Of a stretch of DNA of 64,000 bases, positions 1,890-50,561 are shown piece after piece. The stretch comes from a virus. Every line of letters begins with the position of its first letter. The first letter of the stretch is position 1. Position numbers and translations under genes: made by a program. Below the pieces are notes generated by a model that saw nothing but the letters and a program-made list of their open reading frames with translations, ran no database searches and was not told where the DNA came from. The stretch spans positions 32,001 to 96,000 of IMG/VR virus record IMGVR_UViG_3300017917_003446. One strand, written 5' to 3'.

Positions 1890-2501
1890 ATGAACATTAT
1901 TCAAGTTTTTTCCACACCTGTTTGGAATTCTGCTCTTCCAGATTTTGAAAACCATAAGCAATCTTTTATAGATTGTGTACATGAGTTTCGCAAGAAATAC
2001 GAAACTGGTATTTCAAAATCAAACATCAACGGTTATCAATCTCCTATGATACTTACAAGAGAACCAGAAATGGCTCCTCTTTTTGAATATGTTTGCCAAA
2101 TTGGAATGAAGGCAATATTTGATTTACAACTAGTGGATTGCGATGTATATCTTTCTGCAGCATGGGTAAATTTTAATGAAAACCGAAATCATTACAATAT
2201 TGAGCATGTGCATACAGACACATTTTCCGGCGTATTTTATCTACAAATACCAGAAAAATCAGGAAAATTATCCTTGACAAATCCTGGTCTCAATCCTTTA
2301 TGGCAAGGTGCTCTATTAACCGACACCAAAAATAAGTTTAATGCTGATAGATTAAGAATTGAACCGGAAGAAGGACAAATTTTCGTATGGCCATCTTATC
2401 TTTCTCATGCTGTTGAGCCAAATGATCATGATGAAACTAGAATATCTATTTCTTTTAATATAATTTGTGTTCCTAAGGGGCATGTTGACAATACTAAGTA
2501 A
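1890..2501 (+). CDS. Putative 2OG-Fe(II) oxygenase (TIGR02466-like)
   Basis: WVN..HVH..FSGVFYL..P..G..WPSYLSHAV..RISISFN motif set. Confidence 0.8.
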   Translation: MNIIQVFSTPVWNSALPDFENHKQSFIDCVHEFRKKYETGISKSNINGYQSPMILTREPEMAPLFEYVCQIGMKAIFDLQLVDCDVYLSAAWVNFNENRNHYNIEHVHTDTFSGVFYLQIPEKSGKLSLTNPGLNPLWQGALLTDTKNKFNADRLRIEPEEGQIFVWPSYLSHAVEPNDHDETRISISFNIICVPKGHVDNTK

Positions 2502-2503
2502 TA

Positions 2504-3223
2504 ATGTTTTTACATCAAATTTTTATTAACGACAAAGGTAATTTGCCGACACAATTCCCACTTTATACAGAATTTTGCACAAATGAATTAAGAAGAATTT
2601 ATTTTGATTGGGAATATAAAATTTGGTCAAACGAAGAAATTAAAAAATTTCTTCGTAACAATTTTGAAGATATAGTTTTTAAGACATATGAAAAAATAAA
2701 ACCTTATTCTTATAAATCTGATTTAGCTAGATATTGCATACTTAAAATCTATGGTGGTCTTTATGTAGATTTAAATACTAGGTTTATTAATCGTATACAA
2801 CATGATGAAAATATTCTTTTTGCTTTTAGAGATTACAGTTTAACACAAAGACGAGGATGGTATGTTTCTACCTCTATTATATATTCTGCTGCAAACAATA
2901 ATATCTTAAATACTTGTACAGACATTTTGATAGATAACGTAAATAAAAATTATTATGGAAATTCTCCTTTAGATGTAACTGGACCAGGTGTACTAGGTAA
3001 AGCTATTATTCTAAATGACAGAAGTTTATCTGATATTAGTGGAGAATTACATTGTCTTACTCCATTGCATGAAAATAAAACATTAGCGTTTATTCAAGAT
3101 GGAGGAAATATAGTTGCATTTAGAAAACCAAATGCTCCCGGTGATCTAACTTTTTTTGGTTTCTCAGGGGTAAATAACTATAAAACTATGTGGGAAAGAG
3201 AAGACATTTATTATGATACCTAA
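2504..3223 (+). CDS. Glycosyltransferase family 32 (DXD sugar-binding, Och1-like)
   Basis: KSDLARYCIL..YGGLYVDL and TGPGVL motifs. Confidence 0.8.
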   Translation: MFLHQIFINDKGNLPTQFPLYTEFCTNELRRIYFDWEYKIWSNEEIKKFLRNNFEDIVFKTYEKIKPYSYKSDLARYCILKIYGGLYVDLNTRFINRIQHDENILFAFRDYSLTQRRGWYVSTSIIYSAANNNILNTCTDILIDNVNKNYYGNSPLDVTGPGVLGKAIILNDRSLSDISGELHCLTPLHENKTLAFIQDGGNIVAFRKPNAPGDLTFFGFSGVNNYKTMWEREDIYYDT

Positions 3224-4100
3224 AATAATTCATCATATTGCTCCAGAAAACAAAAATACTTGGCATCCTTTTTGGCATAAATGCTATGATTCTTGGAAAG
3301 AACAGTTTCCAGATTACAAATTTATATTATGGGACGATAAGAATGATATTGATGATTTAGTTAAAACACATTACAAAGTACATTGGAATTTATACAATGC
3401 TTTTCCTTTTCATATAATGCGTATTGATTTTGCGAGACTTTGTATACTGCATAAACATGGTGGAATTTATGCGGATATGGATGTATTTTGTTACAAAAAT
3501 TTTCAACATATTTTAACTAAAGAAGCATATTTTTTGGAAAATTTAACAAACGAGTATACTAGCGCTTGTGTGGAAAATAGTTTACTAGCATCAATATCTA
3601 ACAATAGATTGTTAGAGGAAATTTTGAGATATATCAAAGCATGTTATTTAAATTTTAAAAATTCTTTTCAAACCAATTCGGTAGATTGGAGATCAGCTGC
3701 TAATGCTTTTTTTGTTAACAATACTACCGGTTCAGGTATGCTTGATGTGGCATTCAATCATTATAAAAAATATTTTGATATAGATGTATTTAACTGTGAA
3801 TTATTCAATAATCGCCCTTCTTCTTACGATAAAAAATTTTACACCAAGCATGTTCATACCTCTATTTGGGGTGATGAATATAATAAAAGTAAATTACCTA
3901 ATATAATGTTGTTAGATGGTTGTATGTACAATATAGATACTATTGATGATAATAATCTTCAAATTTTAAAACAAGATTTTAAAGATGTTTTGATTTTGCC
4001 CAATGAAAGCTTTGACTTTTTTAAAGATTACACAAACGGAGTATATTTGAATGAAAACAATCTACATCAAATTAAAAAAATTGTAAGTAAAAAACATTAA
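3213..4100 (+). CDS. Glycosyltransferase family 32
   Basis: MIPKIIH start; RIDFARLCILHKHGGIYADMD. Confidence 0.8.
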   Translation: MIPKIIHHIAPENKNTWHPFWHKCYDSWKEQFPDYKFILWDDKNDIDDLVKTHYKVHWNLYNAFPFHIMRIDFARLCILHKHGGIYADMDVFCYKNFQHILTKEAYFLENLTNEYTSACVENSLLASISNNRLLEEILRYIKACYLNFKNSFQTNSVDWRSAANAFFVNNTTGSGMLDVAFNHYKKYFDIDVFNCELFNNRPSSYDKKFYTKHVHTSIWGDEYNKSKLPNIMLLDGCMYNIDTIDDNNLQILKQDFKDVLILPNESFDFFKDYTNGVYLNENNLHQIKKIVSKKH

Positions 4101-31829: not shown

Positions 31830-32240
31830 ATGGCTGCTACAGTTACCATTCTTAAAAAGGTTAGACAACAAGCTATAGTAAAGGTAATAGGTGATGGTGT
31901 TGCTAACGTAGATATAAAAACCTTGGCATTAGCAGATGAAACTTTTGCTGATTATACAGGTAATGCCAACGTAACAATAAATTCTGTGCTTTGGTCATCA
32001 ACAGATGCCAATGCTCCTATTTTAGTTAAAAGACCATACAATGGTGCAAATGTAATGATATTGCATGGTAATGATAATTGGTCATTATCTCAGATGATGG
32101 GATTCGTAGAATCTACAAATAGTACTGCTAATATATCTGTTACTATGCCAGGGTCCGGCGGAACATTGTATTTAGGATTAACTAAGAATAATGGATTTAC
32201 TGAACCTAATCAGCAAGTCATTACTAAGGTAACAAGCTAA
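31830..32240 (+). CDS. Hypothetical virion protein
   Basis: 136-aa ORF translationally coupled to gp21, in the head module. Confidence 0.5.
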   Translation: MAATVTILKKVRQQAIVKVIGDGVANVDIKTLALADETFADYTGNANVTINSVLWSSTDANAPILVKRPYNGANVMILHGNDNWSLSQMMGFVESTNSTANISVTMPGSGGTLYLGLTKNNGFTEPNQQVITKVTS

Positions 32241-39901: not shown

Positions 39902-40747
39902 ATGAGCAAAATTAAAATATCGGAGTTATTTTATTCTATTCAAGGTGAAGGCCGATTCATGGGTGTGCCTTCAGTCTTTTTAAGGACATTTGGCTGTAAC
40001 TTTACTTGTGACGGTTTCGGTAAACCTAAAGGAGAAAAGAGTGACGAGCGAGACATCATTGCACAACACGCGGATCAGTACAAAAATTATAAATCTTTGC
40101 CTTTGGTTACTACAGGCTGTGATAGTTACGCTAGTTGGGATGTTAGGTTCAAGCATCTTAGCCCTGTTGTGTCTATTGATGTCATTGTTGATGCCATTCT
40201 ACATATGCTACCTCATGGCAAGTGGACAAGTGAGCATCTCGTTATTACAGGAGGCGAACCACTCCTTGGGTGGCAAAGAGCGTACCCTGATCTCCTCTCG
40301 CATCCCGATATGGTCAATCTTCAAGAGCTCACGTTCGAGACCAATGGAACACAAAAACTAGAAGCAAAATTTTCTGAATATCTTAAGACTCATTGGCGTA
40401 AAGGTTGGGATAAGCTTACTTTTAGTGTAAGTCCCAAGCTAAGTGTTAGTGGCGAAAAATGGGAAGATGCCATACAACCTGAAGTAATTGAACAGTATCA
40501 GGAACATGGATATGTCTATTTAAAGTTTGTAGTTGCAGATGAAAAAGATGTAGCAGAGGCAGCTATGGCGGTTGAATGTTATAGAGATAATGGATTTACA
40601 GGTCCAGTTTATCTAATGCCTATTGGTGGAGTAGAATCAGTTTATGCTATGAATAATAAAAATGTTGCATTGATGGCAATGAAGAAAGGCTGGCGTTATA
40701 GTGATAGACTTCAGGTGCCGTTATTTAAAAATGAGTGGGGAACTTAA
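39902..40747 (+). CDS. queE: 7-carboxy-7-deazaguanine synthase QueE (radical SAM)
   Basis: ELFYSIQGEG..G.PSVFLR.FGC, ITGGEPL, FETNGT, SVSPKL; adjacent to folE. Confidence 0.9.
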   Translation: MSKIKISELFYSIQGEGRFMGVPSVFLRTFGCNFTCDGFGKPKGEKSDERDIIAQHADQYKNYKSLPLVTTGCDSYASWDVRFKHLSPVVSIDVIVDAILHMLPHGKWTSEHLVITGGEPLLGWQRAYPDLLSHPDMVNLQELTFETNGTQKLEAKFSEYLKTHWRKGWDKLTFSVSPKLSVSGEKWEDAIQPEVIEQYQEHGYVYLKFVVADEKDVAEAAMAVECYRDNGFTGPVYLMPIGGVESVYAMNNKNVALMAMKKGWRYSDRLQVPLFKNEWGT

Positions 40748-41481
40748 TGAATAGTAAACTTGTAGAAGAAGCACCGTATCATCCTGGATATGAGGGTGCC
40801 GTTTTTGGGCGCCCAATGAGTCAAGTGATTCGTGAACGTATAAAGGAAGGACAGGCTAGATTTTTTGCCAATGATAATATTTCACCTTTTATTCATAATG
40901 AAGATGAGATTGAATTGCTTGTAGATGAAGTAGCAGATAAGTTTCAACAAGTTTTACATTCTTTGTGTATTGATACTCTTAACGATCATAATACACAGGA
41001 CACAGCACGTCGTGTGGCTAAAATGTTTATAAAAGAAACATTTAGGGGTCGCTATGCTAATCCGCCTAAAGTTACAGCATTTCCTAATGTAACAGAATAT
41101 GATGAATTATATGTGACAGGTCCTATTACTATAAGGAGTACTTGTGCCCATCATTTTCAAAACATTGTTGGTAAAGCATATATTGGCGTATTTCCGGGCA
41201 AGAATGTTATCGGCCTTAGTAAGTTTAATCGTATCACGGATTGGATCGCTTCTCGCCCGCAGATTCAAGAAGAAATGACTGTTCAAATTGCTGATGCTAT
41301 TCAGAAAGAAACCGAAGCAGAAGGTGTTGCAGTATTGATCCAAGCAGAACATCATTGTATGACGCATAGAGGTGTAAAGGAACATGAATCAGATATGACT
41401 ACATCTGTTATGCGAGGCGCATTCAGAGAACATCCTCATTTGAAACAAGAGTTTTTTAACATCATTCATAAAATGAAATGA
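40747..41481 (+). CDS. folE: GTP cyclohydrolase I
   Basis: T..RVAKM, STCAHHF, IGLSKF.R, RPQIQE, AEHHCM..RGV. Confidence 0.95.
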   Translation: MNSKLVEEAPYHPGYEGAVFGRPMSQVIRERIKEGQARFFANDNISPFIHNEDEIELLVDEVADKFQQVLHSLCIDTLNDHNTQDTARRVAKMFIKETFRGRYANPPKVTAFPNVTEYDELYVTGPITIRSTCAHHFQNIVGKAYIGVFPGKNVIGLSKFNRITDWIASRPQIQEEMTVQIADAIQKETEAEGVAVLIQAEHHCMTHRGVKEHESDMTTSVMRGAFREHPHLKQEFFNIIHKMK

Positions 41482-42851: not shown

Positions 42852-44131
42852 AGATTTTCGAATATGTGATTTCCGGTCCTGCGTATCTGCGCCTTGGTGC
42901 AGAACAATGTAACGACCCGGAAACACTTGACATGATTAATACTCTTATTTCAAAGACATGCCATAATCAAAATAATCATACCTTCTCACTTTTGTATAAC
43001 GGTTTTACAGAAAAGAACTTTGGTGCTAAACTACAAAAGTACAGACCTGCTATTAAACAGATTCACGCAGACTCAGGCGGTTTGCAGATTATAACTCGAG
43101 GATTACAAAATACTCCTGAGGTAAGAGATAAAGTATATACCAATCAAGGCACTTATGCAGATATAGGTATGGCTTTTGATGAGATTCCTGTTAAGGCTAC
43201 TCAGGATGGTAAATCATCTAAGATAGATACCAAGCGTAGATTCTTTGACAGAGAAAATTTTGATGCGTATGCTACTCAAACAGGCAAAAATGTTCGAGCA
43301 CAAATAGAAAAATTTGCAGAACTTAAATCTAATTGTAGACCATTTGTAATTATACATGGCGCATCCCATGATACATATCAACAATGGGCGGAGGCAATTT
43401 TAAGAGAAGTATCTGAACCATTACATGATAGAATCGGTGGTGTAGCTATGGGATCAGCTGCACTTGGTATGGGGCAGTTAGAAGATGTAAAAAGAGCATT
43501 CTATGTTACTCTAATGCCTTTTAGTAAACCATTTCATCTACACGTACTTGGTGTTGGTGCATTAAGACGTATGCTTCCTTATTTACTATTCAGTCAAACA
43601 GGTTTATATGATGGCATTGATATCTCTTATGATTCTACTACTCATTCTATGTCCTTGGATAATGGTCTCTTTTATTTCTCACACTATAAAAAGACTCCGG
43701 GCTCCGCGTATGGCGGTACGTCGGTTAAAATGGGACGAGAATACTCAAACATTTATAGAACAGTGACAGAAGAAATTAATAATGTTTGTGGTACTACTTA
43801 CGAGCCAGAAGAATATCACAAGTTAATGAACTATCAGGTAACTGCCTATTTAGAAAAAGGTGGTAAGTTCATAGATGTTATGAGAGCAAGATTAGCGTTT
43901 ATTCTAACTAATGTACATAACTTTACTAAAGATGTTTCAGAACTTACTCAATCTAAAGAACAATTCTTAAAATTTGCGAGAGACAAGGGTTGTGAAAATG
44001 AATATGCTACATTATTTGAAGTGAAAAATTTAACAGACTTTCTACATTGGGAAAAGCATGTGGGATGTCATATGGAATCAGAATCAGTTGCAGATAAACC
44101 ACCAGTATCGTTAGAGGATCTATTCGCATGA
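42848..44131 (+). CDS. dpdA: DpdA-like tRNA-guanine-transglycosylase-fold protein (7-deazaguanine DNA insertion)
   Basis: TGT-fold motifs ADSGGLQI, MAFDEIP, HLHVLGVG, SYDSTT; located within a folE/queD/queE cluster. Confidence 0.8.
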   Translation: MKIFEYVISGPAYLRLGAEQCNDPETLDMINTLISKTCHNQNNHTFSLLYNGFTEKNFGAKLQKYRPAIKQIHADSGGLQIITRGLQNTPEVRDKVYTNQGTYADIGMAFDEIPVKATQDGKSSKIDTKRRFFDRENFDAYATQTGKNVRAQIEKFAELKSNCRPFVIIHGASHDTYQQWAEAILREVSEPLHDRIGGVAMGSAALGMGQLEDVKRAFYVTLMPFSKPFHLHVLGVGALRRMLPYLLFSQTGLYDGIDISYDSTTHSMSLDNGLFYFSHYKKTPGSAYGGTSVKMGREYSNIYRTVTEEINNVCGTTYEPEEYHKLMNYQVTAYLEKGGKFIDVMRARLAFILTNVHNFTKDVSELTQSKEQFLKFARDKGCENEYATLFEVKNLTDFLHWEKHVGCHMESESVADKPPVSLEDLFA

Positions 44132-44511
44132 TTATTAAACAAGACGTCAGACCAAGAACAGAAACCTATATTAAAATTAGAACTGAATTTGAAGGATATC
44201 ATCGTTATCCTATTGCTAGTCAAATTGATCCTCGTATTGCCTTTCTTGAAAATGAACACAGGCATATGTTTAAGGTTGAGGTTAAAATCTCTGTATCACA
44301 TCTTGATAGAGAGCTAGAGTTCTTTTTAGTTAAATGGGCACTGCAAGATTTTATCAAAGGCGGCAATATGAATCATAAATCTTGTGAAATGATTGCTACA
44401 GATATTCTTGAACAACATCTTATTCCAAAGTATGGGCAAAGATTTTATGAGATTGTAGTATCAGAAGATGGTGAGTCTGACGGTATCGTAACATATTATC
44501 CGGGTGAGTAA
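44128..44511 (+). CDS. QueD paralog (T-fold), DpdL-like
   Basis: FEGYH..LENEHRHMF.VEV..RELEF..SCEMIA..VSEDGE. LxxxHRHxF replaces the QueD CxxxHG motif. Confidence 0.65.
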   Translation: MIIKQDVRPRTETYIKIRTEFEGYHRYPIASQIDPRIAFLENEHRHMFKVEVKISVSHLDRELEFFLVKWALQDFIKGGNMNHKSCEMIATDILEQHLIPKYGQRFYEIVVSEDGESDGIVTYYPGE

Positions 44512-45677
44512 TGGGCAAACTATATTATATGGGGCTGGAGCCTTACGAGGGCCGTTACACTTTGCAGTTACAGCATTGGAGTGAGGAAGTATTCAAGCGT
44601 AGAGGTATTGAATATGAGGTGATTCATGGTGAGTTACTTGATACTTCAAAGTCTATTGTTACGGGGCAAGTATTAGATGCCCATGGTCGCAGCTATTATT
44701 CTTTGACACAGATGGCAAAACTTGTAGCAAAAATGAAGGCGGGTGAAGTAACTTGGGAAGATACTATTTTCTTTGAGGATATGTTTACTCCTGGTATGGA
44801 AGCATTGCCTTACATCATGGATCAGACTACTCCAGAATTTTGCCCTAATGTGTGGGTAAGATGTTTGGCACAAACTATTGATCCTGACGACTTTCTTCAT
44901 GTGTGGCACATGGAAGAATGGATGAGTAAATATGAGCATATGGTCAATACATTTGTCAAAGGTGTTTTGGCATCTAATGAAGAAATGGTTGCTCATATGA
45001 AAATTGCAGGTTGGAATGTTCCTATTCATAATATTTCTGGTCTAGCATTTGGTAAAGAAGAAGTACAATCTAGAGTATCTGTTAGAAAAGACTTTCATAA
45101 TCGTAAAAGGCGTGTATGTTTTGCTGCTAGATTTGATCAGGAAAAGCAACCTAATTTCTTTATGGATATGATCGAAAGATTAAAACCATATCATGATATA
45201 GAGTTTTGTGTCCTATCAGGTGGACCTTTGCGTAGTAATGATGAATTGATACTTCAAAGGGCAAGAGAACTTAAACAAAAAGGTATGTTAACTATTCATG
45301 AGAACTTGAAGAAGAATGAGTATTATGAAATACTAGCAGATTCCCGAGTATTGTTTAATTGTGCTCTACAGGATTGGGTATCTAATACAGCATCAGAAGC
45401 AGACGCACTTGGTACTAATTGTTTATATCCTGCGTATCGTTCTTTTCCTGAGACTTTCGCAAATGATTCTGAGTGTTTGTATATTCCTTGGTCTTGTGAA
45501 GATGCTGACACTAAATTAATTAAATTGCTTAATAAGCCAAGGCAAAATTTAGGCAAATTATCTGATTGGACAAATGGCACTATTGATCGTTGCTTAGACA
45601 TAATGTATGATGAATCAGGTCAATGGTATAGAGGCGGCATAAGGTATCGTAATCATGTCACAGAATCTAAATACTAA
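44511..45677 (+). CDS. GT-B glycosyltransferase
   Basis: FAARFDQEKQP, LFNCALQD..SNT..EADALG..YP.YRSFPE. Confidence 0.7.
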   Translation: MGKLYYMGLEPYEGRYTLQLQHWSEEVFKRRGIEYEVIHGELLDTSKSIVTGQVLDAHGRSYYSLTQMAKLVAKMKAGEVTWEDTIFFEDMFTPGMEALPYIMDQTTPEFCPNVWVRCLAQTIDPDDFLHVWHMEEWMSKYEHMVNTFVKGVLASNEEMVAHMKIAGWNVPIHNISGLAFGKEEVQSRVSVRKDFHNRKRRVCFAARFDQEKQPNFFMDMIERLKPYHDIEFCVLSGGPLRSNDELILQRARELKQKGMLTIHENLKKNEYYEILADSRVLFNCALQDWVSNTASEADALGTNCLYPAYRSFPETFANDSECLYIPWSCEDADTKLIKLLNKPRQNLGKLSDWTNGTIDRCLDIMYDESGQWYRGGIRYRNHVTESKY

Positions 45678-46647
45678 AAATATTTTAGTAACAGGAGCCG
45701 CCGGTTACATTGGCGGTATAACTTGTATTGAATTAAAACGTAAAGGATATAATGTTTATGGTGTAGATAGAAGATATTTTGCACACTTAAATAAATTTTA
45801 CGATGAATTTTTACAGTGTGATTTTACTGATTATGAAACATATCTGTTAATTAAACGAGTAAAACCTGCAGCAATTATTCATTGTGCTGGTACAAGTTTA
45901 GTTGGTCCTAGCTTTAAATCTCCAGGTGTGTACTTTGATAATAATGTAGCCAGAACAAATCGCCTACTTAATTTTATTAAAGATGAATTACCGAATACCA
46001 AGTTTATTTTTAGTAGTAGTGCAGCAGTATATGGTAATTGGAATAAAGATGCATATAGAGAGTTTGATGACACTAAACCGGTGTCCCCTTACGGGCAAAC
46101 TAAATTAATGGCAGAAGAGATACTACATTGGTATCATAAAGCATATGGTTTAAAATATGTTGCACTAAGATATTTCAATGCGTGTGGCGCAGACCCTGAA
46201 GGTGAACACGGTCAAGAACCAGATGCTACACATATTTTTGCTAAATTATTCGATGCTGCATTGAACGATAAACCTTTCAATTTAAATGGTGCAAATTTTC
46301 CCACAAAGGATAATACCTGTATACGAGATTATGTGCATGTAACAGATATTGCAGATGCACATATAAAATGTATTGACACTGATACTCAAGGGATATATAA
46401 TTTAGGAAGTTACAAAGGAACTTCTAATCTTGACTGTTTAGAATATGTTGAAACTTTACTAAAAAAAGAGATTGTCGTAAATGTTCAACCTGCTCTTGAA
46501 GGAGACCCTGCTATTTTAGTGGCAGATCCTACTAAATTTACAGCAAAAACAGGATGGACTGCTTGGAGAACTATACCTATGGTAGTAAACAATTTAGAAA
46601 AATGGTATAATTCTAATATCTATAAAAATTATCTCAAGCGGCCTTAA
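45655..46647 (+). CDS. galE: UDP-glucose 4-epimerase
   Basis: LVTGAAGYIG, FSSSAAVYG, SPYGQTK (YxxxK), LRYFNACGAD, CIRDYVHVTDIADAH. Confidence 0.9.
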   Translation: MSQNLNTKNILVTGAAGYIGGITCIELKRKGYNVYGVDRRYFAHLNKFYDEFLQCDFTDYETYLLIKRVKPAAIIHCAGTSLVGPSFKSPGVYFDNNVARTNRLLNFIKDELPNTKFIFSSSAAVYGNWNKDAYREFDDTKPVSPYGQTKLMAEEILHWYHKAYGLKYVALRYFNACGADPEGEHGQEPDATHIFAKLFDAALNDKPFNLNGANFPTKDNTCIRDYVHVTDIADAHIKCIDTDTQGIYNLGSYKGTSNLDCLEYVETLLKKEIVVNVQPALEGDPAILVADPTKFTAKTGWTAWRTIPMVVNNLEKWYNSNIYKNYLKRP

Positions 46648-46680
46648 GACGCTCATCCCGCTCAATAAATTCTGCGTGTC
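46637..46680 (+). ncRNA. Putative H-type pseudoknot (preQ1-I riboswitch-like) in the queD leader
   Basis: Stem AGCGG/CCGCT, 16-nt loop ending CATC, A-rich 3' tail, and loop ACGC complementary to downstream GCGT. Confidence 0.5.
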
Positions 46681-46706
46681 ATCAAACTTACTCAACGAGG
46701 CAAGAG

Positions 46707-47216
46707 ATGGCTTTAATCAACCTATCAAGACCATACAAATACACTAGTACAAAAGAATACCATGATGCATTTCCGTGTGCATATAGACAATGGCGCGCCG
46801 ATAGTCATTGTAACTTAATACATGGTTATAGTTTTTCAATGAAGTTTTATTTTGGCACAGATCATTTAGATGTTCGTAATTGGGCGGCAGATTATGGTGG
46901 TCTAAAAGAACTAAAGAAAATACTTGAAGATCAGTTCGATCACACTTTGCTAGTAGCACAAGATGATCCAGAGCTTGAAACTTTTAAATTATTACAAGAA
47001 AAGAATCTAGCTAAACTAACTATTCTACCAAGACTAGGTTGTGAAGGTTTGGCAGATATGTTATACAAATATGTAAATGGTGTTTATATCCCAGATATGT
47101 GGGGTCCTGGTGAAGCAGAAAGACTTTGGTGTTATCGTGTAGAAGTTAGAGAGACGCAAAGTAATATGGCATTCAGAGAAGGGCACCGAGAATGGAACGA
47201 GGATTTGTTTAGCTAA
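46707..47216 (+). CDS. queD: 6-carboxy-5,6,7,8-tetrahydropterin synthase QueD
   Basis: CAYRQWRADSHCNLIHGYS, DYGGLK.LK..L..FDHT, GCE.LA, VEVRET..N.A. Confidence 0.88.
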   Translation: MALINLSRPYKYTSTKEYHDAFPCAYRQWRADSHCNLIHGYSFSMKFYFGTDHLDVRNWAADYGGLKELKKILEDQFDHTLLVAQDDPELETFKLLQEKNLAKLTILPRLGCEGLADMLYKYVNGVYIPDMWGPGEAERLWCYRVEVRETQSNMAFREGHREWNEDLFS

Positions 47217-48259
47217 TGAAAATATGTTTACTAGGCGATACACATTTTGGAGTCAGAAATGACTCCAAAATCTTTCATAAGTATTTTGAAAAATTCTATA
47301 GTAATATCTTTTTTCCTGCCTTAAAAGAACATGGTATAGAAATAATAGTTCAGCTAGGTGATCTATTCGATAGAAGAAAGTATATTAATTTTTTAACACT
47401 ATCTGAATCTAAAAGATACTTTTTTAACGAATTACGAAAACGAGAAATAGAATTACATGTTCTTATAGGCAATCATGATATATTCTGGAGAGAAAACTTA
47501 GGAGTAAATTCTCCTAATCTTTTACTTAATGAATATTCAAATATACTCATCTATGAGGAACCCACAACATTAAAAATAGGGCAAATGTCTATTGATATTA
47601 TACCTTGGATATGTAAAGATAATCAAGCTGAGATTTTAAAATTTATAGAAAACACTGAGTCTAATCATTGCTTGGGACATTTTGAGATATCAGGTTATGA
47701 AATGATGAAAGGTGTTGAAAGCCATGAAGGTATAGATAAAAATTTGCTAAAGAAATATAAGCATGTTTATAGTGGACATTTTCATACTGCATCATCTAAA
47801 GGTAATATTACTTATTTAGGTACGCCTTATGAACTTATGTGGTCCGATTGTAATGATCCAAGAGGATTTTATATACTTGATACAGTTACAGAAGAACTAG
47901 AATTTATTAAGAATCCATATACTATATTTACCAAGTATTATTACAATGAATACGAACATCAACCATTAGAAGAGGTTGAAGATAAATTTATCAAAATTAT
48001 AGTAGTGGATAAGAAAGACTATAACTTGTTTGATAATTTTGTAGAAAATCTTTATAAAAATAATCCATCAGAAGTTAAAATAATTGAGGACATGTCTGAG
48101 TTCGAAAGTTCTGCGGTTGACGATAATATTAATTTAGAAGATACTATGACACTATTGTCGGAGTATGTTGATGGTCTTGAAACAGATGCAGACAAATTAA
48201 GATTAAAAACTATTCTAAGAGAGCTTTATGTAGAAGCGCATGATTACGAGGAAACATGA
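47216..48259 (+). CDS. gp47: Recombination endonuclease gp47 (Mre11/SbcD-like)
   Basis: GDTHFG, LGDLFDRR, GNHD, GHFE, SGHFH. Confidence 0.95.
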   Translation: MKICLLGDTHFGVRNDSKIFHKYFEKFYSNIFFPALKEHGIEIIVQLGDLFDRRKYINFLTLSESKRYFFNELRKREIELHVLIGNHDIFWRENLGVNSPNLLLNEYSNILIYEEPTTLKIGQMSIDIIPWICKDNQAEILKFIENTESNHCLGHFEISGYEMMKGVESHEGIDKNLLKKYKHVYSGHFHTASSKGNITYLGTPYELMWSDCNDPRGFYILDTVTEELEFIKNPYTIFTKYYYNEYEHQPLEEVEDKFIKIIVVDKKDYNLFDNFVENLYKNNPSEVKIIEDMSEFESSAVDDNINLEDTMTLLSEYVDGLETDADKLRLKTILRELYVEAHDYEET

Positions 48260-49968: not shown

Positions 49969-50561
49969 TGCTTATTCGTAAAAGTCAATTACAACTTGTG
50001 AAACCCGAAGATCCTATATTACATAAAGTGCCTGCTCCTTATGTGTTTGAGGACTACGAGGATACTACAGAGTTATTTGCTAATCTAATGTTTGATAGAA
50101 TGCAAGAACTAAAAGGTATGGGTTTAGCTGCAAATCAAGTGGGTGTAAATACTCAATTTTTTACTATGGGTGTAGATGTACTTCGTATTGATGTATTCAA
50201 TCCTAAGATTGTTTCAATGAGCGGAGAAGTAACAACAGAAGAAGGATGCTTAACTTATCCTGGGATTTTTCTACAAATTAAAAGACCATTGAATATAGGT
50301 GTTGAATTTCAAAATGTCAAAGGTGAACTGGTAAAGATGAATCTTACTGGTCTAACTGCGAGAATATTTCTACATGAATATGATCATCTTATGGGCAAAA
50401 CATTTAAGGAAAAGGTATCTAATCTTAAATGGTCACTTGCTAATAAGAAGCTTAAGAATGTAAGAGATAAACTTAAGAAAGAAATAAGACAACGATACAT
50501 TGTCGACACTTATAAGGAAATGTCAAATGTCGCAAGTAGTGTTACAGGAGTACGAGAATAG
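49968..50561 (+). CDS. def: Peptide deformylase
   Basis: GMGLAANQVG, EGCLT, HEYDHL motifs. Confidence 0.9.
   Translation: MLIRKSQLQLVKPEDPILHKVPAPYVFEDYEDTTELFANLMFDRMQELKGMGLAANQVGVNTQFFTMGVDVLRIDVFNPKIVSMSGEVTTEEGCLTYPGIFLQIKRPLNIGVEFQNVKGELVKMNLTGLTARIFLHEYDHLMGKTFKEKVSNLKWSLANKKLKNVRDKLKKEIRQRYIVDTYKEMSNVASSVTGVRE

Follow-up and report, generated by a model that had tools for sequence, protein, structure and literature searches.

A conserved pseudoknot in the queD leader of uncultured T4-like phages, resembling preQ1-I in architecture: a candidate new riboswitch class

Introduction

Does a phage operon for modified DNA bases carry its own RNA sensor? The question is raised by a 64,000-nt stretch of viral DNA (positions 32,001 to 96,000 of the IMG/VR record IMGVR_UViG_3300017917_003446; hereafter the window), in which the gene queD (6-carboxytetrahydropterin synthase, PTPS family) is preceded by the sole gap in a run of tightly packed open reading frames (ORFs). 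A sequence-only reading of the window had proposed that this gap folds as a pseudoknot like that of the class I preQ1 (preQ1-I) riboswitches, possibly as a variant aptamer for another metabolite of the pathway. We compared about 145 distinct aptamers from uncultured T4-like phage contigs. Judged by this sequence comparison, the leader certainly holds a structured RNA that is conserved and tied to queD, an H-type pseudoknot of 44 nt (46637-46680). The conserved preQ1-I-like pseudoknot is very probably a cis-regulatory RNA, and we consider it likely that it is the sensor of a translational switch and represents a new orphan riboswitch class.

A conserved pseudoknot in the queD leader

The ORFs of the run lie on the plus strand between 39902 and 50561, and the gap comprises 59 nt (46648-46706). 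The G+C content of the aptamer is 52% against 33% for the window, and the description of the gap as the only sizeable one and as relatively GC-rich was accurate. The parts of the pseudoknot are as follows.

46637-46641, plus strand: 5′ arm of helix P1, AGCGG, paired with 46658-46662
46642-46647, plus strand: loop L1, CCUUAA, containing the UAA stop codon of the upstream epimerase gene (46645-46647); its conserved part is limited to the first three bases, N-C-U
46648-46655, plus strand: 5′ strand of helix P2, GACGC-U-CA, paired with 46673-46680
46656-46657, plus strand: loop L2, UC, whose invariant C adjoins the P1 3′ arm
46658-46662, plus strand: P1 3′ arm, CCGCU, paired with 46637-46641
46663-46672, plus strand: loop L3, CAAUAAAUUC, with the consensus N-N-A-N-A-N-A-Y-U-C
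46673-46680, plus strand: P2 3′ strand, UG-C-GUGUC, whose last three bases, GUC, are common to a helix that sequesters the start codon

P1, with its 16-nt loop and A-containing linker, lies exactly where the sequence-only reading had placed it (AGCGG 46637-46641 with CCGCT 46658-46662) and is kept by compensatory changes. P2 consists of seven pairs around a mismatch. With positions given by their last two digits, G48-C80, A49-U79, C50-G78, C52-G76, C54-G74 and A55-U73 are Watson-Crick pairs, G51.U77 is a wobble pair, and U53.C75 (U46653.C46675) is the mismatch. The predicted pairing between loop and tail thus exists, but not in the register first proposed. ACGC (46649-46652) with GCGT (46674-46677), a slide of -2, is paired in 42.6% of cells against 87.4% for 46648-46655 with 46673-46680, and was ruled out.

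The window sequence by itself folds no better than chance (minimum free energy (MFE) -13.7 kcal/mol, z = 0.39, 130 of 200 shuffles as good); therefore, the structural evidence consists of comparative data. A protein-selected alignment (A1) with 57 distinct motif copies was used to build a covariance model, R1. The P2 statistics come from a gap-free core alignment (A5; 103 sequences, 500 shuffles) and from scripted anchored counts. A5 replaced the full-aptamer alignments made with MAFFT (A2) and with the covariance model (A3) because these placed unpaired gaps in P2.

The test on leaders of homologous queD genes, which the sequence-only reading had named as one way to check the structure, showed that P1 and P2 are both conserved with compensatory changes across the relatives. 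P1 was paired in 100% of 51 distinct relatives, with GC/CG at pair 2 and CG/UA/AU at pair 3. Among the 145 aptamers, its types were AGCGG/CCGCU (92), AGUGG/CCACU (22), AGAGG/CCUCU (22) and ACCGG/CCGGU (6), with three single mismatches; one locus (L230) has UGAGG/CCUCA, in which the first pair is U-A.

For P2, the results in A5 show that 87.4% of cells were paired, compared with 65.5 +/- 1.2 in shuffles, a level reached by 0 of 500, and the covariation score was 0.565 against 0.195. Both sides had changed in 177 cells, and such changes were found in six of the seven pairs, the innermost variable pair occurring as U-A, C-G, A-U and G-C. Slid registers paired in only 22-43%. Additionally, cognate strands formed 4.12 of five variable pairs, and strands swapped between sequences formed 2.63 +/- 0.10. 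The closing A-U pair is replaced by G-C in five loci (L024, L027, L066, L223 and L243), and the U.C mismatch is kept in 144 of the 145 aptamers.

Unpaired bases are conserved too. The first position of L1 is never G (U 59, C 53, A 33), the second is C in 145/145 and the third is U in 144/145, whereas the rest of L1 varies in composition and its total length ranges from 4 to 13 nt. L2 is UC in 104 aptamers, CC in 23, UUC in nine, AC in four, CUC in three and UCC in two. C46657 of L2 and A46665, A46667, A46669, U46671 and C46672 of L3 are invariant in A1. The conserved bases, N-C-U at the start of L1, Y-C of L2, A-Y-U-C at the end of L3 and UCA/UGC at the base of P2, are all located at the junction of P1 and P2, which in the H-type pseudoknot of preQ1-I is the ligand pocket (PMC10622847).

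Two loci (L239, 1429-1472, and L234, 1-31) carry a shortened motif with a 4-bp P1 (UAGG/CCUA) and a 7-nt L3 (CUAAUUC). It keeps the P2 base and the platform, scores only 16.7 bits with the model, and may be either an extreme of the fold or a copy in decay.

Distribution of the motif and its association with queD

We collected 80 IMG/VR loci whose QueD is 87-96% identical to that of the window, and all share the leader wherever upstream DNA is present. R1 returned 80 matches over the window and 79 loci, one per source and all on the queD strand, with 41-74 bits in this first set of relatives; L061, a locus without upstream DNA, gave no match. The whole 115-kb virus record contains one match, as does each of four phage contigs of 192-303 kb.

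L044 apart, every match immediately precedes the queD reading frame. In that locus, a 276-aa ORF with a SAM-methyltransferase-like motif (LDLGCHIGF) lies between the pseudoknot (2048-2101) and queD (2971-3492), so that the leader (locus 2048-3492) precedes a two-gene unit; all other loci seen have queD as the gene next to the motif.

The search was extended with a degenerate pattern of the invariant core, in which P2 and most of L1 were free and two P1 positions were variable. More than 120 further viral contigs carry the motif. The next gene encodes a QueD-family protein in 84 of the 84 pattern-found loci with readable downstream DNA, although these proteins are only 29-92% identical to the window QueD and the flanking gene order varies. 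The QueD proteins behind the motif fall in at least three subfamilies. In a second QueD clade (195 aa), collected by protein alone, 28 of 39 loci carry the motif, and the most distant members of the clade are without the leader.

Among GTDB genomes, the motif was found in only five contigs (L083-L087), all from metagenome-assembled genomes (MAGs) and all with a phage-like QueD. By label, four belong to Bacteroidota (Bacteroidetes, Haliscomenobacter, Crocinitomicaceae, Chitinophagales) and one to Nitrospira; two motif copies (G001, contigs C1 and C58) come from the Haliscomenobacter MAG, one of them lying on a contig of 183 kb. All five probably derive from phages and were binned with a host, and their labels hint at Bacteroidota hosts.

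Neither the region nor a consensus-like copy had a BLAST match in GenBank phages. In the closest cultured phages, Acidovorax ACP17 (L257), Xanthomonas X1 (L258), PhiXhv-15 (L259), Pseudomonas pf16 (L260) and Rhizobium RHph_I1_18 (L261), queD is leaderless, overlapping the gene upstream or directly adjoining it, and the covariance model run on ACP17, X1 and PhiXhv-15 gave no match. As in the window, the queD of RHph_I1_18 adjoins peptide deformylase and SbcCD-like genes. No isolate among the GenBank phages was found to carry the motif, which limits direct experiments on the native system.

The QueD N-terminus differs by 5-30 residues among close relatives (L005, L013, L023, L024, L037 and others). 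The start codon proximal to the motif is often upstream of the conserved QueD core; the distance from leader to start is kept and the N-terminal tail is not.

A putative expression platform over the start codon

The sequence-only reading had described a small CTC-AAC-GAG hairpin at the Shine-Dalgarno (SD) sequence. This hairpin is not the conserved element. The conserved downstream helix pairs GUCAUC with GAUGGC over the start codon.

46678-46683, plus strand: 5′ arm of the alternative helix, GUCAUC, which overlaps P2 by 3 nt; the helix is also present in the MFE fold of the window
46697-46700, plus strand: SD sequence GAGG, within the loop closed by the alternative helix
46706-46711, plus strand: 3′ arm of the alternative helix, GAUGGC, which includes the queD start codon (46707-46709)

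In an RNAalifold analysis of 40 leaders of the window class, this helix (columns 6-11/45-50) was paired in 38-40 of 40, with changes UG/UA/CG and CG/UA. In almost every leader, the P2 3′ strand ends in two to six bases complementary to the SD or start-codon region. The overlap is kept by different designs: GUCAUC/GAUGGC in the window, and GCCAUC/GAUGGC, AAGUCAUC/GAUGACUU and UGCCAU/AUGGCA elsewhere. Further designs are UGUCU/AGACA next to GGAG, CCUAUG/CAUAGG(AG) and CCUUAUU/AAUAAGG.

We folded 173 distinct leaders without the P2 5′ strand. At least two of the five variable bases of the P2 3′ strand (P2b) paired with the ribosome-binding site (RBS) region in 170 of the 173 MFE folds. When P2b was blocked, the mean unpaired probability of the SD and AUG rose from 0.35 to 0.53 (window, 0.23 to 0.43), and accessibility increased by more than 0.1 in 112 leaders.

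In the proposed mechanism, the 3′ end of the P2 3′ strand would double as the 5′ arm of the helix that covers the SD or the start codon, and P2 and the sequestering helix would be mutually exclusive because they share these bases. A folded pseudoknot, stabilised by its ligand, would leave the ribosome site open and QueD would be made; with P2 open, the site would be closed. We infer from these modelled folds, which are not a demonstration, that the folded pseudoknot frees the ribosome site. The placement of the SD outside P2 also suggests ON logic and not the OFF logic of preQ1 riboswitches.

Gene context and the modified base

The window belongs to a 115-kb virus record with an estimated completeness of 59%. 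The genes of the run, and a promoter-like octamer, are as follows.

39902-40747, plus strand: QueE-like radical SAM protein
40735-41481, plus strand: GTP cyclohydrolase I
Between GTP cyclohydrolase I and the T-fold protein, plus strand: two ORFs whose products have no Pfam family
44128-44511, plus strand: T-fold protein of 127 aa, carrying LENEHRHMF
Between the T-fold protein and the epimerase, plus strand: group 1 glycosyltransferase
45655-46647, plus strand: NAD-dependent sugar epimerase, the gene directly upstream of the queD leader
46621-46628, plus strand: late-promoter-like octamer TATAAAAA, 8 nt before P1
46707-47216, plus strand: queD, the gene under the leader
Downstream of queD, plus strand: SbcD-like and SbcC-like nucleases, then peptide deformylase, in the run ending at 50561

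The window QueD matches Pfam PF01242 (1.8e-15) and the QueD-like PHROG 2389; NCBIfam TIGR03367 is its best family, yet below the cut-off. The queD stop overlaps the start of the SbcD-like gene (47216; overlap region 47213-47219), and the leader may therefore also affect, by coupling, translation of the recombination nuclease genes downstream. In other loci, such as L117, L129, L137 and L160, queE directly follows queD.

The T4 late-promoter octamer consensus is TATAAATA, from which the octamer of the window differs by one mismatch; it is a weak candidate. In 76 of 174 distinct upstream regions of relatives, an octamer with at most one mismatch occurs within 40 nt (14 exact), at distances clustering at 7-11 nt. 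Given the AT-rich DNA, a T4 late promoter upstream of the motif is suggestive only.

The LENEHRHMF of the 127-aa T-fold protein fits LxxxHRHxF, the signature proposed for DpdL, the decarboxylase of 7-carboxy-7-deazaguanine (CDG) (PMC10516641). QueC (PF06508) was not found in the 115-kb record of the window nor, above the cut-off, in five other large motif-bearing contigs, all six records being incomplete. On the basis of this signature and of the lack of a detected QueC, the base inserted in the DNA is probably 7-deazaguanine or a derivative, and the pathway of these phages appears to stop at CDG/7-deazaguanine.

Comparison with Rfam families

The sequence-only reading had asked for a scan with the Rfam preQ1 models; none matched the leader, the record or the relatives. 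We ran all 4227 models of Rfam 15 at the gathering score on the whole window and 20 relatives, and at E<=10 on a 351-nt (46500-46850) and an 83-nt (46630-46712) slice. No family, the preQ1 classes included, reached the gathering score in the window or the 20 relatives, and the E<=10 scans of the slices gave merely chance-level matches to unrelated families, with no preQ1 model. RF00522 over the whole record gave best scores of 12.6 and 10.7 bits, both elsewhere than the leader and against a gathering cut-off of 39. A leader with the AGAGG variant (L025) gave nothing relevant at E<=10 on 81 nt, and the models of guanidine-III, SAM-II/V, preQ1-II/III, THF-II, pistol and other ribozymes gave no covariance-model match. 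The preQ1-I resemblance thus held for the architecture before a phage queD, and the leader is not recognisable as a class I preQ1 riboswitch by RF00522. The element is without description in Rfam 15 or in the literature searched, and a paper on phage 7-deazaguanine modification (PMC10516641) does not contain the word riboswitch.

Which explanation accounts for the element

We favour a metabolite-binding riboswitch, to which several features point: the invariant bases centre on the junction, the L2 cytidine is never opposed by G, the core is constant, and aptamer and RBS pair alternatively. The RNA core stays near-invariant while QueD diverges to 29% identity, which favours an unchanging partner such as a metabolite. 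As expected of riboswitches in general, the aptamer covaries and lies in 5′ leaders of genes that are metabolically coherent, and a platform that excludes part of the aptamer was found in silico in 170 of 173 leaders, with a weak swap control. The rough energies of P2 (-6.0 kcal/mol) and of the alternative helix (-5.5 kcal/mol) are also similar.

The ligand is a matter of speculation. The invariant L2 cytidine probably reads a guanine-like heterocycle, and the candidates are 7,8-dihydroneopterin triphosphate (H2NTP) or another pterin, 6-carboxy-5,6,7,8-tetrahydropterin (CPH4), CDG, 7-deazaguanine and guanine released by DpdA. Phage-made preQ1 or preQ0 is unlikely because no QueC was found, and an aptamer variant sensing another pathway metabolite, as the sequence-only reading had suggested, may fit the absence of QueC and the DpdL-type signature. 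The fuller proposal would be a class confined to uncultured T4-like phages that senses a guanine-like 7-deazaguanine or pterin metabolite (H2NTP, CPH4, CDG, 7-deazaguanine) or DpdA-released guanine and turns queD translation ON, which would adjust the supply of precursors to what DNA hypermodification demands. We advance it tentatively, at somewhat less than even confidence.

Several points weigh against this explanation. Kinship among the sequences inflates the shuffle statistics, which the slid-register control and the presence of several QueD clades mitigate. Blocking P2b lowered accessibility by more than 0.1 in 13 of the 173 leaders, the swap control for complementarity between P2b and the RBS was weakly positive (3.51 against 2.98 bases), and the overlap of P2b with the RBS helix is only 2-3 nt in the commonest leader class. 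The helix energies are rough values that leave out the pseudoknot, and a P2 of seven pairs may be stable without any ligand. Furthermore, a pathway metabolite that turns the first committed enzyme ON is less usual than feedback OFF.

The strongest competitor, itself unlikely, is a protein-binding translational operator, whose partner would be QueD, another phage factor or a host factor, as with the T4 gene 32 pseudoknot. A 5′-leader pseudoknot in a T4-like phage, possibly near the transcript 5′ end if the promoter-like octamer is used, agrees with an operator, as does the association with a single gene, and the long P2 could hold without a small ligand. However, the near-invariant core beside a QueD that diverges to 29% across at least three subfamilies argues against QueD autoregulation. 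It is also less parsimonious to assume a trans factor that serves a single gene, and the clustering of invariant bases at the junction, with no G opposite the L2 cytidine, fits a small pocket.

A divergent but genuine preQ1-I riboswitch, binding preQ1 or preQ0 through the L2 cytidine with feedback OFF on queD, is rather more doubtful. Its topology matches, its 5-bp P1 ends in GG/CC with a frequent AGAGG/CCUCU variant, and the invariant C before the P1 3′ arm, the A's in L3 and the que gene downstream are features of that class (PMC10622847). Against it stand the RF00522 scans of the leader, record and relatives described above, the failure to find QueC in six motif-bearing records, and the proportions of the element: a long P2, an L2 of 2-3 nt, an L3 that ends in Y-U-C and not in A, and a conserved U at the third position of L1. 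Nor does the SD belong to P2: it is found 16-25 nt past that helix and pairs with its 3′ strand. A true preQ1-I riboswitch with OFF logic is less likely than the element being either a protein operator or a ligand-free structural element.

It is improbable, taken singly, that the element works independently of any ligand, as a 5′ stabiliser, translational enhancer, kinetic timer or thermosensor that forms during transcription and holds the ribosome site open. The aptamer is transcribed ahead of the RBS, P2 differs little in energy from the alternative helix, and single-sequence folding is unremarkable, all of which would suit such a role. But a stabiliser needs no invariant unpaired bases, and there are at least nine here plus an invariant mismatch (the bases counted are C46643, U46644, U46653, C46657, A46665, A46667, A46669, U46671, C46672 and C46675).

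Finally, we can dismiss a hairpin formed by chance, an intrinsic terminator belonging to the upstream gene and conservation due to the end of the overlapping upstream ORF, although the window alone folds no better than shuffles and the P1 5′ arm and L1 overlap the last epimerase codons, since the motif stays while upstream genes differ between loci, no U-run follows P1, a terminator does not explain the P2 covariation, and the model scores 41-74 bits; chance is excluded, and the varying upstream genes and the P2 covariation rule out a terminator or coding-constraint origin.

Significance

QueD is the first enzyme that commits a GTP-derived pterin to 7-deazaguanine bases, which these phages place in their DNA and which evade restriction. 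If the element binds a metabolite, it would define a riboswitch class that is new, has a very small aptamer (about 44 nt) and is phage-only as far as the searched collections show. The phages would then tune the supply of DNA-hypermodification precursors by an RNA sensor of their own, and a DNA-modification pathway would for the first time have a riboswitch of its own. As an ON-type relative of preQ1-I in architecture, the element would also be a natural counterpart to that well-studied fold. It could also supply a compact sensor for a deazapurine or pterin intermediate, for which we know of no RNA sensor. Even with a protein partner, it would be a well-defined and abundant phage regulatory RNA that has no Rfam family.

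Comparison with known systems

The closest known relatives in architecture are the preQ1-I riboswitches (RF00522, types 1-3). Both are H-type pseudoknots of similar size, in which P2 crosses a P1 of 5 bp here, within the 5-6 bp of preQ1-I, topped by two G-C pairs. In both, a cytidine immediately precedes the P1 3′ arm and L3 contains adenines, and both lie in the leader of a queuosine/7-deazaguanine pathway gene. In preQ1-I, the L2 cytidine specifies the ligand, a U of L1 and an A of L3 read the minor-groove edge of the ligand, and the A-rich L3 lies in the minor groove of P1 (PMC10622847). The cytidine at the 3′ end of L2 occupies the same position in the queD element and faces an L1 base that is never G; a ligand-reading role would be in keeping with this position.

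The two differ in proportions and design. P2 has 7-8 positions with a U.C mismatch in the queD element and 3-4 bp in preQ1-I, and L2 has 2-3 nt against 4-6 nt. L3 ends in Y-U-C as opposed to an A-run ending in A, and the conserved C-U at positions 2-3 of L1 contrasts with a U right after P1. The SD of the queD element lies outside P2, 16 nt downstream in the window, whereas that of preQ1-I is partly in P2; a short, SD-containing P2 with repression by ligand was not found. The queD element was also found only in uncultured phage contigs and the five MAG contigs that are probably phage. For its failure to match the family model, its P2 and L2 proportions and the lack of the SD-in-P2 design, we did not file it as a preQ1-I member.

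Compact pseudoknots are also found in the guanidine-III (ykkC-III), SAM-II/SAM-V, preQ1-II and fluoride riboswitches. Guanidine-III has a P1 of about 4-5 bp, a P2 of about 7 bp, an L2 of 2 nt and an L3 of about 10 nt. The queD element differs from all of these in its lack of an Rfam match, its conserved bases and its association with queD only.

The THF-II riboswitch (folE motif) belongs to the pterin/GTP cyclohydrolase pathway, and a conserved U and a conserved C, opposite each other in a helix, recognise its ligand, an arrangement reminiscent of the U.C mismatch in the queD element. However, THF-II is a simple hairpin interrupted by an internal loop and occurs upstream of bacterial folE, and its Rfam model does not match the queD element.

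The T4 gene 32 leader is likewise a 5′-leader pseudoknot in the mRNA of a T4-type phage that controls translation. It is the operator bound by gp32 in T4-like phages, is not known to have a conserved junction pocket and precedes another gene; homology to the queD element was not detected.

In its logic, the queD element would come closest to the add adenine riboswitch, a translational ON switch in which an aptamer strand doubles as the anti-RBS and the ligand-bound form frees the SD and AUG. The add aptamer is a three-way-junction purine aptamer and not a pseudoknot, and it has no sequence relation to the queD element; what the two would share is a strand of an aptamer helix that also serves as the anti-RBS.

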